The notes beneath the pieces are model-generated. The model searched no databases. It had not been told where the DNA came from and saw only the letters and a list, made by a program, of their open reading frames with translations. Below, one piece after another: positions 1-56,674 of a DNA stretch of 59,379 bases (position 1 is its first letter; every line of letters begins with the position of its first letter). A program made the position numbers and the translations under genes. The stretch comes from a candidate division WOR-3 bacterium (GTDB lineage: Bacteria; Hydrothermota; Tepidihabitantia; Tepidihabitantales; CAIPLT01), in assembly GCA_026418155.1 (NCBI GenBank), contig JAOABV010000005.1, positions 1-59,379 on the forward strand, read 5' to 3'.

Positions 1-298
1 GTCTAAAAAAGGATTAATTCTTCTATCAAAGTCAAGTTAAAAAGTGAGGAAAGTTTTAATGTCTAAAAAGGAATTACTTCTTCTATCAAAGTCAAGTTAA
101 AAAGTGAGGAAAGTTTTAATGTCTAAAAAAGAATTGCTTCTTCTATCAAAGACAAGTTAAAAAGTGAGGAAAGTTTTAATGTCTAAAAAGGAATTATTTC
201 TTCTATCAAAGACAAGTTAAAAAGTGAGGAAAGTTTTAATGTCTAAAAAGGAATTGCTTCTTCTATCAAAGTCAAGTTAAAAAGTGAGGAAAGTTTTA
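1..298 (+). repeat. Tandem array of five 60-bp units, each copying the ptsI RBS, start codon and first 8 codons; the array is cut by the window edge
   Basis: Units at 1-60, 61-120, 121-180, 181-240 and 241-300 are near-identical and in register with the real start at 299. Each holds GAGGAAAG, an ATG and a 13-codon ORF ending in TAA. Confidence 0.95.
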
Positions 299-4655: not shown

Positions 4656-5960
<1,305 letters not shown>

Positions 5961-6019
5961 AAAATTTTTCAGATTACAGATTATTTTATTGATATAATAA
6001 GTGTTGTCTATTTGGTAAT

Positions 6020-6125
6020 GTATAATAAATATTTTGTGTAGATTTAGACTTGATGTGTTAAAAATAAAGGTGTATTCTCCTATGATGAACAATTTCAATA
6101 ATAATAAGAGAACGCACCTAATGGA
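6020..6125 (+). repeat. Copy A of a dispersed ~50-nt intergenic motif, with extended similarity to the copy at 39851-39955
   Basis: gtataataaatattttgtgtagatttagacttgatgtgttaaaaataaaggt aligns with copies at 34321, 39851, 53444(-) and 55516(-). Confidence 0.7.
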
Positions 6126-6559
6126 AGAAAGAAGAAATTACCCAAAATTCTTGACGCCGTCCTTTCAAGTTCCTTGTAGTATAAATTAATCCACCATAGA
6201 TATTCTTGTAAAGAATTAGGTTCAAGTAGATCGCTTCTTCATCAGAATGCAATCTGCTCTCAATTGCCATAATTCTCTTTCCAATATCAACTACGGCTTT
6301 GGCTAATTAGCCAAATGTTCAGCAGTAATTTATTGTAACTTTGCTGAGAGTTTTTGTTGGCAACAGTTGAGACAAAGAACAAAAATCATTGGATTGCGGT
6401 TTGAATCAAATCTATTCCATAATCGCTTTCCTGTTCTATTAACGATAGCAAACAAAAAGATATTGATAAAAGACAATCTCAGTATTAAAACGGAGCATCA
6501 TCATAACAATTTAGTATTTTGAGAGAAAGACGCTATCAGACATACAGCACAAAATCCTA

Positions 6560-6915
6560 AAGTTGTAACCAATAAGAGAATCATAAAACGATTGAAACTC
6601 AAGTTATCAAAGTCATTTGGGTTCTATGTGACTTTATCTAACCCGAGTTATCAGAATGTGGCTGTGAATTATGCGACCTCAGATGGCACCGCAACGATAG
6701 ATGATAATGACTATGCTTCAGCAAGTGGTCTTTTGACTTTTGCTTTTGGTGTAGTTTCGTAACGGATTGACGCCACCGTTAATGGTGATATTAAGTATGT
6801 GCCGAACGAGACCTTTAATGTTAATCTTTCAGATGTAGTTAATACCACGATTTCTGATAATCTTGGTGTGGTCACAATGAATTCATATAGTTTTTTTCGG
6901 TTCGCTGTATTATAA
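6560..6915 (+). pseudogene. Calx-beta-domain fragment with an in-frame stop
   Basis: Translation reads FYVTLSNPSYQNVAVNYATSDGTATIDDNDYASASGLLTFAFGVVS*RIDATVNGDIKYVPNETFNVNLSD, which follows the Calx-beta pattern. There is a stop at 6760-6762, no start and no signal peptide. Confidence 0.6.
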
Positions 6916-7240
6916 AATAATTAACTTATTGTCAATCTTCAGTTATAAGGATGGACGAGAAAAATTTATCGTGATAAAATTTGTAATATTCGTCTAATTG
7001 TAATGCCTTGATGGAGCATTTCTTACATTGTTTGTCACCACCCGGTAAATTTCCACTCGTGATTGCAATATAAAATCCGCTGTAGTTGTTCTACTCTTAT
7101 AGATAACAATTTTTCTAATTCTTGTATTTCGATACACATAATTAATAAAATATTGTCTTGCATTGTTCCTCCTAATGCGTTTTAATAAATTCTATTATTT
7201 TATCTTTTAAGTAAAAGCAAAATTTAAGACAATTCATAAC

Positions 7241-7415
7241 TTATTTGGGAACATCCGCGTCACTAAGTCGGGGAAAGAAGATAATCCGATAACCTGCTTT
7301 TGCTTTACGCTGTAAATCATCAAGAATTCCATCTGCGACTTTAGAGATATAATCAAATTGTGTGAAAAATTGGGAATAAGGTATTTTATAGGCATAACAA
7401 AAGAGAGATAATTAA
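7241..7415 (-). pseudogene. Orphan C-terminal gene fragment
   Basis: This frame reads ...FTQFDYISKVADGILDDLQRKAKAGYRIIFFPRLSDADVPK* with no start codon. A ~57-nt internal tandem duplication lies at its upstream edge. Confidence 0.4.
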
Positions 7416-7467
7416 ATTTCATAGAAAATTGGAATAAGGATTTAATGGCTATAATAAAAATGCCGGT

Positions 7468-7715
7468 ACTAATCAAAAGAGCCACAGGCCTGTTTGACCG
7501 AGAAGGCAAAAGATTAGGCGACTTTATCGGCTATCCTATTGATAATCCAGAGGTTAAATCGTTCGGTCACCTAAAGGACAATCTGAGTATCTGTAGGTTG
7601 GGCGGGCAGAAGGGTATGCCGGAGGGTTGCCGAGGGGTATGCCCCCCGGCTTGCCCCCTGGCTTGCCGACCGGCTTGCCTATTAGGTGACCGAAGGTGTC
7701 AGTTAAGCCGGTGGT
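7468..7715 (+). repeat. GC-rich ~240-nt element, copy 1 (possible structured RNA or MITE-like element)
   Basis: Aligns over its length with the reverse complement of 29028-29258. Contains GGGTATGCC x2 and GGCTTGCC x3. A perfect 13-bp stem, TTCGGTCACCTAA (7562-7574) with TTAGGTGACCGAA (7682-7694), encloses the GC-rich core. Confidence 0.8.
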
Positions 7716-7799
7716 TAAAACAAAAGTATGATTGAAATGGTTAAAGAGATTGTCAATTAATAAATACAGCCGGATGGAACATTAAAAAACCAGAGGGAA

Positions 7800-8215
7800 A
7801 AGAATATGCTTATCTTTAATTTATCAGAATTTCCCCAACATAGACAATTTCTCGTAAAGAAATCCGATGGTCTTTAGTCTATCAGAGTTTCCCCAAACAC
7901 AGATAACATTTCCAAATATTCGTAGGAATAATCGGATTCACTATCAGAGGGAAATTTAATCCAGTCGTGACATTTCGGACAGTAAATCGGTTTCCCGATT
8001 TGTTTTTCTTTAATTTAGAACGATAATTACAAGTATCCTGTATGCCTTTTAGGTTTTTCAACTTCTTTGAAATAAACTTTTAAATTCTCTCTTATCCAGT
8101 CATAAAAATCCAATTCTAGGAAACTCAAAAAATTCTTAAACTTATCTTTTTCCTCTTTAATTTCATGATTTTTTGTAAAGTTTTAAATTCGCTTTCAATT
8201 TCTTTTACATTTATA
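7800..8215 (-). pseudogene. Frameshifted remnant of a small Cys-containing protein gene downstream of the nuclease operon
   Basis: Minus-strand pieces read ...DFYDWIRENLKVYFKEVEKPKRHTGY and, in another frame, CNYRSKLKKNKSGKPIYCPKCHDWIKFPSDSESDYSYEYLEMLSVFGETLID*. The 3' end motif ctatcaga(g/a)tttcccc is repeated. Confidence 0.4.
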
Positions 8216-8222
8216 ATTTTAT

Positions 8223-9200
8223 TCACAATACTTCCTTCAGAATTATATCATTTGTTTGTTTATCTACATTATATTTTATTAACCTAACGGATTTTTCTTC
8301 AATTAATTTTCTCTTATTTATGTAATTAAGGACAGCGTCGTCAAAATCAAAGCCGACGAGAATGCTTTGAACCATTTCTGGATCCCCATTTGCCAATTTT
8401 CGCACTAACCAGTTTTCATATCCAATAATTTGTCTTAGATTTTCTTCAGTTACAATATCGGTTTTTAATTCGATGCAAGTAAATTTATGTAGAATTTCCA
8501 CGGAGTCAATCGTTGTAACGTGAGTTAAAAACAAATCCATTACTTTATTAAATGATGTCGGTACATAATTTAAAAAATCTTTGTAATCTCCAACTAAATT
8601 TTTCAACTTACTTTCACTGAAAGATTTCATAAACCATGCATTTAAAAATCCTTCATGTTTTATTTTCCCTTGTTCATCACATTCTAATGGTAACTGAATA
8701 TTTTGGGCTTTCGCAGGTTTGTAAGGATTTTTTATGCCCGTTACTGGTTCATATATAGGATTATTTCGTAAAAGAAGCCGAATTATTTCTTTTCCTTCTT
8801 CAGTTGTAATTGTATATTGATTTTTCCTTATGAACGCGCCCAAATCGAAAGTCCAAATTTTACCTTTATCTCTTAAATCTAGAATATCACTTAGTACAAC
8901 TGGTCTCATAAAATTTCTTACAATAGGTTCGAAACAAAATCGAAATGGATAAGTTTGATTATCGGCATTCCAAATATTCCTCTGTTCATAAAATGGATCG
9001 GTAGTTGCTCGCCATAACCCATAAATTCCCGTATTTTTAACATAAAAAAATATGAAGTCGTTAGGTTTAATAGCAAAAATACATGAAATTATTTCGGCAT
9101 TTGTCTTTATATTAGATGGCCATTCGGGGCTTCCGTAGACGCCTTTTTCGATGCAAGATTTAAAATTTTCTTTTCCAATTAAAAAAATATGATAACTCAT
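8223..9200 (-). CDS. Predicted PUA/EVE-like domain fused to a PD-(D/E)xK (NucS/RecB/Shedu-like) nuclease
   Basis: The N-terminal ~150 aa follow an EVE/PUA-like strand pattern (YHIFLIG..., IKPNDFIFFYVKNTGIYGLWRATTDPFYE, YPFRFCFEPI). The C-terminal part has E183, D222 (VMDLFL), E244-L-K246 (CIELK) and Q257-x3-Y261 (QIIGY). Confidence 0.5.
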   Translation of the reverse strand: MSYHIFLIGKENFKSCIEKGVYGSPEWPSNIKTNAEIISCIFAIKPNDFIFFYVKNTGIYGLWRATTDPFYEQRNIWNADNQTYPFRFCFEPIVRNFMRPVVLSDILDLRDKGKIWTFDLGAFIRKNQYTITTEEGKEIIRLLLRNNPIYEPVTGIKNPYKPAKAQNIQLPLECDEQGKIKHEGFLNAWFMKSFSESKLKNLVGDYKDFLNYVPTSFNKVMDLFLTHVTTIDSVEILHKFTCIELKTDIVTEENLRQIIGYENWLVRKLANGDPEMVQSILVGFDFDDAVLNYINKRKLIEEKSVRLIKYNVDKQTNDIILKEVL

Positions 9201-9225
9201 TTTATGTTAAAATTAATTCTTAATT

Positions 9226-9417
9226 TTAAGGTTTTTTGCTAAGATTGAATGCTCGCCAAGATTGTTCATGGTCTTTATTTTTTGTGGGATTTTTAAGCCA
9301 ATCCCGTTTATGCAATTCTTTTGCTTCTTGCAACAGTTCGGAAATATATTTATAAGTTTCTCCTCCAAATTTTTCTTTCTTTTTCTCGTATAGTGCTATC
9401 AAATCGGAGAAATTCAT
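9226..9417 (-). CDS. Hypothetical small protein (63 aa), middle gene of the nuclease operon
   Basis: ORF packed tightly between 9421-9642 and 8223-9200, with gaps of 3 and 25 nt. No recognisable motif. Confidence 0.5.
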   Translation of the reverse strand: MNFSDLIALYEKKKEKFGGETYKYISELLQEAKELHKRDWLKNPTKNKDHEQSWRAFNLSKKP

Positions 9418-9420
9418 TTG

Positions 9421-9642
9421 TTATCTTATAAATTGGGCTACACAATCTCTGCACACGGCATGAAGATTTTCGAGTTTTTCTGTTTTTGGAGTTTTCCAAT
9501 GGACAGATTTATCACGACCGAAACTATTGTAATAACTAAAACATTTTTGTAAAGTATCTTTTGATTTATAGTATTGTTTCTTGCCGTTTAATGGATAGGT
9601 ACAAACAATTACTAAATTATCAGTATTTGTTTTATTTGTCAT
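9421..9642 (-). CDS. Hypothetical small Cys/His-containing protein (73 aa), first gene of the nuclease operon
   Basis: Start moved to ATG 9642 (MTNKTNTDN...), because the ORF-track TTG 9666 lies upstream of the predicted -10 box. C...C...H...CRDC spacing hints at zinc binding. Confidence 0.5.
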   Translation of the reverse strand: MTNKTNTDNLVIVCTYPLNGKKQYYKSKDTLQKCFSYYNSFGRDKSVHWKTPKTEKLENLHAVCRDCVAQFIR

Positions 9643-9651
9643 CTTAAATGT

Positions 9652-9679
9652 ATTATAAATAACCAACTATTAATGTCAA
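9652..9679 (-). promoter_or_regulatory. Consensus sigma70-type promoter for the 9642-8223 operon
   Basis: On the minus strand: TTGACA (9679-9674), a 16-nt spacer and TATAAT (9657-9652). The ATG lies only 9 nt past the -10 box. Confidence 0.6.
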
Positions 9680-10088
9680 TGGAGAGTTAATTCGAAAATT
9701 AAGTTTCTAAACTAAAGTCAGATTGAAGCATAAGATTAGTCAAATAACAAATTTATTAAAAACATCAGATTGTATTGCCACCATCAAAAACTATTGCTTG
9801 CGACACGCGACCGTATTAGAGAATGCTCAGAAAAAAATAAGAAAAATATTCAATCAGTTCAATTTCTTCAATCGTAAGAATTGTCTTTTTCAGGCTTTTC
9901 GTTTTTAAGATTCCTGTGTTATTGTCTCTGCGGGATTGTTGGAATAAGGTCGGAAAAATTGAAAATAAAGTACTTTGCTTTGTGAGACATCTGTTTATAT
10001 TTTAGAGACTTTGTGAAAAAGGTGTATGGAGTTTAGAGAGACAATCTCTTTCAGTATAACAGACAAAAAATGGAAGGGGTGTATCGTA

Positions 10089-11438
10089 TTAGTCTTCGTA
10101 AGTAAGGTTGAGTTTATTCCAGAGCCATTTGACATCAAAATATGGTCTGCCTTGTTGTTTATTATATTCTTGCTGGTTTTCAAGTTGTTTTAGGAGTTCG
10201 ACAACTTCGATTTTACCTTTTTTCGTCTTTACGGACTGAAGAGGTGTTTTATTGTTGAGTGCGGGAATTGGTTGATGTAACCATTTTTCGTAATGTTCTC
10301 GCATTGCTTTGTTATACAATTCTTGTTCAATTTCTAACGGGATTTCGTTTTTCGGTTGGTATTTTGACATATCTTTAAGGGGTTTTAGTAATTCAATAGG
10401 TTCTTGAAATTCGTCCGATTGATGGCTGATGAAGTCACCAATTTTTTTGTTAAGTATTTCTTTGCCTTTATCTAATCGCTCTTTAGAATTAGTTTCAAAA
10501 ATCAACTTGTTACTTTGGATGGTGATTTTCCCAAAGATAACTTTTTCGCCATATTGGTTTAAGTCTTCCCAGATAAATTCCTCATCTTTAATGTTTTCAA
10601 ACTCAGTAATTGTTTTTAATCCGCTGAGCACTGCTGGGATGTCGCTAATGGTATATGTTGCTTTGGAAAATATCAGTGCTTCATTGGTTGTTGTTTGGAG
10701 AATTAATGGAGGCTGGTTGGCAATAGATGCGTACCAAATATCAATAAAAATGTGGCTATCTTTTTTGAGTAGTTCCTGCCAAGAACCATCTTTATTTTTT
10801 CTTAAATAATTTCGATAATATTTTTTAATATTTTTGACAATCAAACTCTTGTCCGTTATTGGGTATGGGTAATTACAACCACTGATGATATATTTCTTAT
10901 CAAGTGACAAAAGCCGAGTTGCGAAAATATTCCATTTTAGCATTGAGCGCGTGGCTAATTTTTCTTGGACTGTATATTCATTCTCTAAAAGAAGGTCTTT
11001 AAGTATCATTCCTTTTTCAGGAAATACTTCTTGAACTTCGTAAAGACTAATGTAGGTTTTCTTCATCATATCAAGGACTTTAAGATCTTCTGCAGTTAAT
11101 TTCGTTCCGCTTTCAATATATAAATCAATCAAAGTTTTTTTCGTTTTTGTATCAATTACCCAATCATAAACAACCCAATCCCAAAAATTTATATCAGCAA
11201 GTTGGAGAAACTCTGGAGTCATTTTTTCCGAAGTGGGCATTTGTTGGTGAAAAAAAAGCTTGGCTTTGTGGAGTTCAATATTATAATTGGCGTAGGCAAA
11301 TTTTAGAAGGTCTTGAACCAAGCGTCCTTTTACGAATTCTTCAAAACCAAATTCGGTATTGGTATTGACCAGACAGCACTTTTTGTATTTTTTACCACTA
11401 CCACAAGGACAAGGGTCGTTGCGACCAATCTGAGACAT
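10089..11438 (-). CDS. SEC-C motif domain protein (449 aa), function unknown
   Basis: N-terminal RNDPCPCGSGKKYKKCC zinc motif followed by a long uncharacterised body. The C-terminal helical segment reads ...IPALNNKTPLQSVKTKKGKIEVVELLKQLEN. Confidence 0.75.
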   Translation of the reverse strand: MSQIGRNDPCPCGSGKKYKKCCLVNTNTEFGFEEFVKGRLVQDLLKFAYANYNIELHKAKLFFHQQMPTSEKMTPEFLQLADINFWDWVVYDWVIDTKTKKTLIDLYIESGTKLTAEDLKVLDMMKKTYISLYEVQEVFPEKGMILKDLLLENEYTVQEKLATRSMLKWNIFATRLLSLDKKYIISGCNYPYPITDKSLIVKNIKKYYRNYLRKNKDGSWQELLKKDSHIFIDIWYASIANQPPLILQTTTNEALIFSKATYTISDIPAVLSGLKTITEFENIKDEEFIWEDLNQYGEKVIFGKITIQSNKLIFETNSKERLDKGKEILNKKIGDFISHQSDEFQEPIELLKPLKDMSKYQPKNEIPLEIEQELYNKAMREHYEKWLHQPIPALNNKTPLQSVKTKKGKIEVVELLKQLENQQEYNKQQGRPYFDVKWLWNKLNLTYED

Positions 11439-40004: not shown

Positions 40005-40034
40005 TTGACAAATCTTATCTGATTGCCTTATAAT
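40005..40034 (+). promoter_or_regulatory. Near-consensus sigma70 promoter directly abutting the FmdB-like gene
   Basis: TTGACA (40005-40010), an 18-nt spacer and TATAAT (40029-40034). The ATG at 40040 lies only 5 nt after the -10 box. Confidence 0.6.
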
Positions 40035-56645: not shown

Positions 56646-56674
56646 TTGACATAATTTTATATATTTCGTATAAT
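56646..56674 (+). promoter_or_regulatory. Perfect-consensus sigma70 promoter about 240 nt upstream of the C25 protease gene
   Basis: TTGACA (56646-56651), a 17-nt spacer and TATAAT (56669-56674). Confidence 0.6.

Follow-up and report, generated by a model that had tools for sequence, protein, structure and literature searches.

An EVE-nuclease cassette that appears to have overwritten a BsaWI-type restriction-modification operon in a candidate division WOR-3 bacterium

This study concerns a 59,379-nucleotide stretch of DNA from a candidate division WOR-3 bacterium (contig JAOABV010000005.1; hereafter the window) and, within it, a minus-strand gene for a protein of 325 amino acids (aa) that joins an EVE domain to a PD-(D/E)xK nuclease domain. 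We propose that this protein is probably a stand-alone modification-dependent (type IV) endonuclease, that its gene arrived in a cassette which overwrote a type II restriction-modification (R-M) operon, and that the two small open reading frames (ORFs) upstream of it are relics of that operon. Modification-dependent restriction of DNA, taken by itself as the function, is on balance the likelier prediction. All of the sequences compared come from metagenome-assembled genomes (MAGs) or metagenomes, the window itself being probably a MAG contig, and labels of the form L148 denote the individual loci or contigs that were compared with it. The features on which the argument depends are listed below; the three ORFs follow one another in the same direction on the minus strand, in the places given to them by the first-pass annotation of this DNA.

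8223-9200, minus strand: gene for the 325-aa EVE-PD-(D/E)xK nuclease, intact (ORF list)
8751-9200, minus strand: EVE (PUA-like) sensor domain, residues 1 to ~150 (Pfam, NCBIfam, profile and Foldseek)
8226-8708, minus strand: PD-(D/E)xK nuclease domain, residues ~165-325 (motif residues, AlphaFold2 model and Foldseek)
9226-9417, minus strand: 63-aa ORF, an apparent remnant of a BsaWI-family endonuclease gene (ORF list)
9421-9642, minus strand: 73-aa Cys/His-rich ORF, 81 aa if the TTG at 9666 is used (ORF list)
9679-9652, minus strand: TTGACA-16-TATAAT promoter, 12/12 consensus matches
8035-9244, minus strand: cassette of 1210 bp, inserted or replacing, with the nuclease gene and a small downstream gene (blastn against L148)
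8027-8226, minus strand: small acidic gene of family B (see below), frameshifted (translations and tblastn)
7749-8034: right flank shared with the R-M-bearing WOR-3 contig L148 (95.8% identity to L148 1906-2192)

The replacement becomes visible when the window is set against L148, which comes from a WOR-3 MAG and carries the R-M operon in intact form. There, a 73-aa ORF is followed after 3 nt by an intact 233-aa RE_BsaWI endonuclease gene (R) and then by an overlapping gene for a 278-aa N6_N4 methyltransferase (M). By blastn, L148 1-358 corresponds to window 9602-9245 with 98.9% identity, and L148 1906-2192 to window 8034-7749, the shared right flank, which in L148 is DNA downstream of the methyltransferase gene. 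The breakpoints are at 9244/9245 and 8034/8035, and the 1210 bp of window 8035-9244 stand in the place of 1547 bp in L148 (359-1905), which hold R from codon 58 to its end, all of M and ~205 nt beyond. The cassette contains the nuclease gene and one small ORF only, with no methyltransferase gene, and a search confined to M of the displaced family and to the 59-kb window found none. From these alignments it is very likely that, in a BsaWI-family R-M operon, the cassette took the place of M as a whole and of R except for its 5' quarter.

At the left junction, identity to L148 ends at '...GCATTCAA', and the next ~30 nt (~9244 to ~9210) look like a diverged, frameshifted continuation of R, similar to the R stump that precedes the nuclease gene in L001, L058, L059 and L029, its closest relatives. 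Such a junction is in keeping with a left crossover in which the resident R recombined homologously with an incoming R stump. No terminal direct or inverted repeats beyond AT-rich chance matches were found at the cassette ends (8035/9244), and no recombinase ORF was found within the cassette; we therefore rejected the idea that it is a transposon or insertion sequence. Since there is almost no non-coding DNA upstream of the nuclease ATG, the cassette would have come without a promoter of its own.

The two small upstream ORFs can be traced to the displaced operon. Ten database relatives of the 63-aa ORF were found, the longer of which (94-106 aa) run on past its end with conserved sequence, and the source names given to two of the ten are 'type II restriction enzyme' and 'DNA modification methylase, partial'. 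Among metagenome contigs, a scan turned up 80 loci with a complete R gene of 220-245 aa. The full-length R protein (~234 aa) matches Pfam PF18643 (RE_BsaWI) with E 1.9e-36 over residues 97-201; a phmmer search of the L148 R protein against the PDB gave no BsaWI match, and the BsaWI assignment rests on Pfam. A hidden Markov model (HMM) of R matches the 63-aa ORF of the window with E 3e-27, over R[1-58] only, the catalytic domain being absent. On sequence grounds, the 63-aa ORF is codons 1-58 of a ~234-aa BsaWI-family type II endonuclease, and is a remnant of that family rather than a member of it.

The sole database homologue of the 73-aa ORF is the 98%-identical partial protein of L148. A 48%-identical homologue lies upstream of an intact R in L084, and the ORF is absent from the other 57 EVE-nuclease loci. 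We conclude that the ancestral BsaWI-type R-M operon began with this small gene, possibly a regulator or a leader. Its match to Pfam HNH is weak (E 0.0034, 18 bits over 21 residues) and below the cutoff, and on this sub-threshold match the ORF is at most a possible minimal HNH nuclease. The promoter region of the window shows 79% identity to the stretch that precedes a second BsaWI-like R gene, in L067 of the same WOR-3 MAG as L148, and the promoter at 9652-9679 is inherited from the displaced R-M operon; it presumably drives the whole chimeric transcript. The copy in L067 (1392-1904) extends over the promoter, the 73-aa-ORF region and the R gene with 70-79% identity and stands after a 313-aa HTH_3 protein; since it is a second copy, that MAG has two paralogous BsaWI-like operons.

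With the promoter, the 73-aa gene and 58 R codons left over from the R-M operon, the 73-aa and 63-aa 'partners' are relics and not subunits. The first-pass annotation had described a three-gene operon in which the nuclease was accompanied by two small partners of no known match, behind a consensus promoter. The promoter and the closely packed upstream ORFs are real, but the ORFs belong to the R-M system and not to the nuclease, and the operon as such does not stand, as the trio shows no conserved co-occurrence, the observation by which that annotation had itself proposed to judge it.

The replacement is not confined to the window. When HMMs of intact R and M were applied, truncated remnants were found to abut the cassette in ~20 of ~55 loci and in both gene orders, one arrangement being R[1-65] / nuclease / small ORF / M[~303-409] and the other M[3-127] / nuclease / small ORF / R[130..186-229]. 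The two arrangements mirror the two gene orders of intact R-M systems, and none of the 80 intact R loci has a nuclease gene within 4 kb. Besides the window and L148, a second pair of occupied and unoccupied sites was found in the Candidate Phyla Radiation (CPR) downstream of trmD, where L072 carries intact R-M and L059 an R stump, the nuclease, a zinc-ribbon ORF and an M stump. The third pair lies between grpE and hsp20-dnaK, with R-M in L094 and an EVE-nuclease island in L004. BsaWI-type R-M systems have repeatedly been overwritten, where R meets M, by a promoterless EVE-nuclease cassette; at least two gene orders are involved, and three site pairs document the event independently.

Several of these loci have contents of their own. 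The island in L004 (3178-6189) runs in the order GHKL ATPase, 81-aa ORF, EVE-nuclease and zinc-ribbon ORF; the ATPase (HATPase_c_3, 492 aa) has PADLOC matches to 'REase_II' models, and the heat-shock operon (grpE/hsp20-dnaK) seems to be a hot spot for defence genes there. In the Nealsonbacteria-like loci L059 (7189-8223, minus strand) and L061 (7140-8675), a second, divergent EVE-fusion protein is encoded convergently to the cassette; it has 344 aa and a D...ELK motif and matches Pfam EVE with E 0.002. In one Nealsonbacteria-like variant an MjaI-type R-M system adjoins, the whole being a small restriction island downstream of trmD. A small zinc-ribbon ORF (68-73 aa, CNECG...CRECE) stands upstream of the R stump in L001 (5401-5622), L058 (5640-5846) and L044 (787-948), and a 57-aa ORF in L001 (5635-5808) recurs in L052 and L034; both are missing from the window.

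The N-terminal half of the 325-aa protein had been read in the first pass as an EVE/PUA-like domain, and this is upheld by Pfam, profile and structural comparisons. Alone, the window protein gives weak single-sequence signals (Pfam EVE, E 0.007; NCBIfam PRK00809, 6e-5); Pfam EVE matches 30/30 aligned family members, with a best E of 2.5e-8. A plain sequence search of the 325-aa nuclease against the PDB returned nothing, whereas the profile and fold searches were informative. The family profile found the archaeal EVE proteins PH1033 (5.7e-4) and MJECL36 in the PDB. An AlphaFold2 (AF2) model of the protein, built on the family alignment, has a mean pLDDT of 87.8 and a pTM of 0.87, and its N-terminal half matched PH1033 (1wmm, 1.3e-8), MJECL36 (4.9e-8), the EVE-HNH enzyme VcaM4I (1.5e-5) and many YTH domains (YTHDF2, ~1e-4) in a Foldseek search of the PDB. 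The aromatic residues Y22, Y53, W63, F70 and W77 of this half are invariant or nearly so in the alignment of 30 homologues. By hhalign, the EVE domain also aligns with the DCD domain of the R-M methyltransferase with a probability of 95.5%. In CPR or groundwater genomes (L127:2733-3983 and other loci among L068-L147), the partner M is a fusion of this DCD domain (PF10539, E 8e-21), an EVE-like modified-base reader, with the N6_N4 methyltransferase; it is unusual, and puzzling, for a type II methyltransferase to carry such a reader.

In the C-terminal half, the residues E183, D222, E244, K246, Q257 and Y261 are present in the window protein and invariant across the 30 homologues, which are 60-76% identical. 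In the AF2 model D222 is found on strand 220-231, E244 ends strand 234-245 with K246 directly after it, Q257 and Y261 are on helix 252-268, and E183 is on the first helix of the nuclease domain; as modelled, this arrangement has the geometry of a RecB/NucS-type PD-(D/E)xK active site. The K-to-Q spacing of 11 and the Q-to-Y spacing of 4 match what we take to be the spacings in Pyrococcus abyssi NucS. When the full model was searched with Foldseek, the C-terminal half matched EndoMS/NucS (5gke/2vld) at ~1.5e-3. Residues 160-325 modelled alone (pLDDT 78.8) again placed EndoMS/NucS on top (5gkj 1.2e-3, 5gke 6e-3 and 2vld 9e-3, probability ~1.0), with weaker matches to the other PD-(D/E)xK enzymes MspJI, AspBHI, Mus81, Can2 and HamA.

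When the nuclease domain was searched by itself (phmmer, 1.84 billion representatives), only 109 clusters were recovered, mostly of proteins of 320-410 aa in which the domain is C-terminal. Ten such distant proteins were scanned with Pfam; five have EVE or DCD N-termini, one (P0196) matches NucS_C weakly (0.0039) and another matches PDDEXK_3. The occurrence of EVE and DCD N-termini on divergent relatives points to the sensor-plus-nuclease modularity that is typical of modification-dependent enzymes. The invariant residues and the EndoMS/NucS fold matches agree with the E...D(x21)ExK...QxxxY pattern of a NucS/RecB-type nuclease recognised earlier, and we are confident that the 325-aa protein combines, in one chain, an EVE domain and a NucS/RecB-like PD-(D/E)xK nuclease. 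The accompanying suggestion that it is Shedu-like found no support from PADLOC, from Pfam, which detected no DUF4263 in the window protein or its 30 relatives, or from Foldseek, which returned no Shedu structure among the PDB matches. A derivation of the nuclease domain from the displaced R gene was likewise rejected, hhalign of the C-terminus against the R profile giving a probability of 0.1%.

The second component of the cassette is the small gene downstream of the nuclease. In ~37/50 loci a small ORF on the same strand starts -23 to +30 nt from the nuclease stop, and these ORFs fall into three unrelated families:

Family A: 72-82 aa, zinc ribbon (M..Y.C..CGY ... CP.C), 13 loci, mean pI 5.0, net charge -6
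Family B: 58-91 aa, acidic with a conserved DDYYEWLKDNF-like motif, ~21 loci, mean pI 4.6, net charge -8.5
Family C: ~155-166 aa, Dehalococcoidia only, 9 loci, mean pI 8.15 (range 5.5-9.2), near-neutral to basic

The three families are interleaved on the nuclease tree, and sister sequences may carry different partners. PADLOC and PHROGs searches with families A, B and C gave nothing above noise. All three families are absent from the 80 intact R-M loci, and we therefore rejected them as parts of the R-M system. In the window, the GTG start of the family B gene (8226-8224) overlaps the TGA stop of the nuclease gene (8225-8223). Its frame breaks between ~8175 and 8145, where there is an A6 run at 8169-8174, and the conserved C-terminus FLSFLELDFYDWIRENLKVYFKE lies in the other frame; the downstream ORF of L001 matches it by tblastn with 58% identity and E 4e-10. 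The frameshift is either a recent inactivation or a homopolymer assembly error. A 'CPKC' peptide at ~7930-7990 on the minus strand was considered as a family A remnant and dismissed as chance, tblastn with two family A proteins finding nothing in the window.

In the mechanism that we propose, the EVE domain would bind DNA and flip a modified base into its pocket, base flipping by an EVE domain having been shown for VcaM4I (PMC7897488). The NucS-like PD-(D/E)xK domain would then cleave, using D222/E244/K246 and a divalent metal together with E183 and Q257/Y261, and probably as an oligomer, as in NucS or MspJI. The host would be spared by lacking the modification, the enzyme having no methyltransferase of its own. 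The nuclease gene would travel with one small downstream ORF as a ~1.2-kb promoterless cassette, with the left crossover placed inside the R gene, apparently by way of an R-remnant 'homology arm' on the incoming DNA, and the promoter, 73-aa gene and 58 R codons left behind would presumably now drive expression of the nuclease. Since the cassette repeatedly sits across the R/M junction of a single R-M family, its position suggests that the mark read may be N4-methylcytosine (m4C) or N6-methyladenine (m6A) written by the methyltransferase of the displaced family.

There are points that weigh against a type IV enzyme of this kind. If the enzyme targeted the mark of the displaced M, a cell whose DNA was fully methylated should be killed on acquiring it. 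The match to a nuclease fold is moderate (Foldseek E 1e-3 to 1e-2, TM-score ~0.4), Pfam NucS_C matches neither the window protein nor any of 30 family members, PADLOC gave only noise for the nuclease (best PDC-S02, E 0.029) and PHROGs gave no match. For a defence gene its evolution is slow, with 60-76% identity across phyla and domains. Over 11 Dehalococcoidia loci the nuclease averages 70.4% identity, against 64.8% for the adjacent SecA, and 15 Dehalococcoidia loci keep the nuclease gene downstream of secA, with polX following in ~12 of these. RNA, too, can be bound by EVE domains, and the biochemistry of the subfamily is itself a prediction. Lastly, since the window is probably a MAG contig, the frameshift in its family B gene may be a homopolymer error.

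The proposal may be carried one step further, tentatively, to a reading that we think unlikely. The cassette may be an 'R-M displacer', in which the EVE domain senses the mark of the very M that is displaced and the cassette persists only where M, and the now-lethal R, have been knocked out. Such a reading would explain why, whichever gene order is present, the cassette straddles precisely the R/M junction. The stumps of R and M would serve as portable homology arms for overwriting intact copies of this widespread R-M family in new hosts, and the small acidic protein (zinc-ribbon or family B) would assist the takeover by damping the nuclease or by keeping residual type II enzyme in check for as long as methylation is being diluted out. 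If true, this would be direct genomic warfare of type IV against type II restriction.

The stand-alone endonuclease has also to be weighed against readings of a different kind. The cassette could encode a toxin-immunity pair, an EVE-nuclease toxin with a small inhibitor downstream, which would act as an addiction or abortive-infection element. The translational coupling of the small ORF to the nuclease in those ~37 loci is in keeping with this, as are the acidity of families A and B (pI ~4.6-5.0, charge -6 to -8.5), which is shared by many nuclease inhibitors and DNA mimics, and the position of L002 within a HEPN/MNT/ParE toxin-antitoxin (TA) island; EVE domains in TA contexts have been described by Bell et al. 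(PMC7641849). However, ~13/50 loci have an intact nuclease gene and no A, B or C partner, so the small ORF is an accessory and not an obligatory linked antidote. Furthermore, the partner is frameshifted in the window where the nuclease is intact, three unrelated partner families swap between sister lineages, and family C is near-neutral to basic. We regard a toxin-immunity pair as quite improbable.

The distribution of the gene bears on whether it is instead a housekeeping or repair endonuclease of the NucS/EndoMS kind, whose EVE domain would read a damaged or naturally modified base of the host. The family of the 325-aa protein has 539 homologues at E<=0.001, from CPR bacteria, Chloroflexota and other groups, and the aligned ones retain their 60-76% identity over the full length; with this many homologues, the listed best ones being full length, the ORF is not a chance product. 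A pattern-based scan that covered one genome for each GTDB species, 185,579 representatives in all, found 52 EVE-nuclease loci with 51-73% identity, in Dehalococcoidia and other Chloroflexota, CPR, WOR-3, Zixibacteria, Ignavibacteria, Brocadiia, Hydrothermota, a Hyphomicrobiales MAG, Thermoplasmata and Methanoperedens. In every host the GC content of the nuclease gene averages ~10 points under that of its flanks and tracks that of the host (r = 0.82), which is the signature of a horizontally moving and partly ameliorated gene. In a Zixibacteria MAG (L033:3520-4500) the gene is in two halves of 163 aa each; no other copy among ~53 complete loci is clearly broken, and the others keep 320-330 aa.

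A housekeeping role would suit the nearest solved nuclease fold, which is that of the mismatch/repair endonuclease NucS/EndoMS, as well as a conservation equal to that of SecA and the place beside secA and polX in Dehalococcoidia. Against it stand the patchy spread of so few loci among so many species representatives, a gene that is always AT-richer than its host, and its setting in R-M wreckage, in TA islands and beside other EVE-nuclease or R-M genes. Even the secA loci L011 and L028 contain M remnants, and the poor correlation of SecA and nuclease identities over the 11 Dehalococcoidia loci (r = 0.19) argues against vertical descent. A housekeeping or repair function therefore appears decidedly improbable.

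An RNA-directed nuclease, in which the EVE domain would read a modified tRNA or rRNA base and the nuclease would cut RNA, is very improbable in our estimation. RNA binding is the classical role of EVE, PUA and YTH domains (PMC6765204, PMC7641849), the last of which figure among the Foldseek matches. A tRNA-guanine (queuine) transglycosylase gene, tgt (4845-5960, plus strand; PF01702, E 5e-155), is also found 2.3 kb from the nuclease gene. This tgt is of the canonical bacterial type and is not kept near the nuclease gene elsewhere; a functional tie between the two was rejected, and the proximity of tgt to the gene of a modified-base reader is probably a coincidence. The recurrent context of the nuclease gene is DNA restriction-modification, and to our knowledge those RecB/NucS-type PD-(D/E)xK domains with a QxxxY motif that are known are DNases, which counts against RNA as the target. 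We infer that the substrate is DNA.

A three-component system of the 73-aa, 63-aa and 325-aa products, either Shedu-like or a multi-subunit type IV enzyme, is scarcely credible: the ORFs are closely packed on one strand behind one strong promoter and the 63-aa ORF recurs 5' of the nuclease in its closest relatives (L001, L006/L058, L059-62 and L029), but the latter covers just the first quarter of a BsaWI-family endonuclease and lacks its catalytic domain, the 73-aa ORF accompanies intact R-M operons and not other EVE-nuclease genes, most EVE-nuclease loci have neither small ORF, and there is no DUF4263 or Shedu signal.

The surroundings of the cassette are rich in decay, as had been noted in the first pass: the 63-aa ORF is a truncated gene and the gene 3' of the 325-aa ORF is frameshifted. 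The 8-10 kb segment is AT-rich, with a GC content of 0.29 compared with ~0.36 across the window. Between tgt and the cassette, the ~2 kb of window 5960-8034 contain no ORF of more than 100 aa but short fragments, among them a Calx-beta-like peptide at 6592-6762 ('VNYATSDGTATIDDNDYASASGLLTF'), and look like decayed genes. Directly upstream of the relic promoter, a 449-aa protein is encoded on the minus strand (10089-11438); it has a SEC-C zinc motif in its N-terminal part and, in its C-terminal part, an Xre/MbcA/ParS antitoxin toxin-binding domain (E 1e-6). No ORF for a toxin of the RES or MbcT type was evident adjoining it. The window has two other perfect promoters, of the form TTGACA-N17/18-TATAAT, on the plus strand at 40005-40034 and 56646-56674. 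Since the 59-kb window thus holds three perfect-consensus promoters where 0.03 would be expected from shuffles, this lineage uses textbook sigma-70 promoters.

The architecture of the window protein has precedents. EVE-PD(D/E)XK proteins are predicted type IV enzymes in the survey of Bell, Wolf and Koonin (2020, BMC Biol 18:159, Fig. 7; PMC7641849), where the class is defined by architecture only and called fast-evolving, and where slow-evolving EVE proteins are tied to housekeeping roles. This agrees with the first-pass view that EVE-nuclease fusions are an established theme in type IV restriction. The window subfamily shares with that class the N-terminal EVE reader, the C-terminal PD-(D/E)xK nuclease and the lack of a cognate methyltransferase. 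It differs in being unusually conserved and in having a variable small downstream ORF; its EVE domain is nearest to that of archaeal UPF0310/PH1033 proteins, and its NucS-like nuclease has the QxxxY motif. The window protein is an uncharacterised addition to a known predicted class, and the subfamily may already be in the dataset of Bell et al.

Among characterised enzymes, VcaM4I and TspA15I are EVE-HNH endonucleases dependent on 5-hydroxymethylcytosine or 5-methylcytosine (PDB 6YEX; PMC7897488, PMC6765204). They likewise combine an EVE sensor and a nuclease in a single chain of ~300 aa, in accord with the Foldseek match to VcaM4I, but their catalytic domain is HNH and their identity to the window protein is ~16%. 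MspJI and AspBHI (PDB 4F0P, 4OC8) also have a PUA-superfamily sensor followed by a C-terminal PD-(D/E)xK nuclease. Their sensor, however, is SRA-like, their nuclease is Mrr-like without the RecB QxxxY helix and they are ~450 aa long; the Foldseek matches to them are weak, with E 7e-4 at a root-mean-square deviation of >20 Å for the whole chain and E 0.08-0.6 for the domain. NucS/EndoMS (PDB 2VLD, 5GKE) is the best structural match to residues ~165-325, and D...ExK...QxxxY is common to both, but NucS/EndoMS has its own N-terminal DNA-binding and dimerisation domain, which in the window protein is replaced by EVE, and itself acts on mismatches or branched DNA in repair.

For the locus, the closest comparison is with the BsaWI-family type II R-M systems (PF18643), BsaWI itself cutting W/CCGGW (PMC4652773). 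The 63-aa ORF corresponds to the first 58 residues of such an endonuclease, and the promoter and 73-aa ORF come from such an operon; unlike these systems, that of the window is dead, having lost M entirely and, from R, the catalytic domain. In the immigration control region of Escherichia coli (PMC12707154), alternative restriction systems of type II or IV also occupy one chromosomal site among related genomes, but the swap there takes place between conserved housekeeping genes, whereas that in the window took place inside the R-M operon and left stumps.

This evolutionary context is a more interesting result than the protein itself. The pairs of sites before and after the event give a single-locus view of one restriction system overwriting another and inheriting its promoter, and so of the turnover of defence loci. 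They also hold a lesson for annotation, in that small ORFs closely packed after a strong promoter may be what is left of a displaced operon and not subunits. As regards the enzyme, should it read m4C or m6A it could become a useful reagent. If it is modification-dependent, it would represent a compact (325 aa) and very conserved subfamily in uncultivated anaerobes, namely Chloroflexota, CPR, WOR-3 and several archaea, lineages in which almost nothing is known of restriction from experiment.

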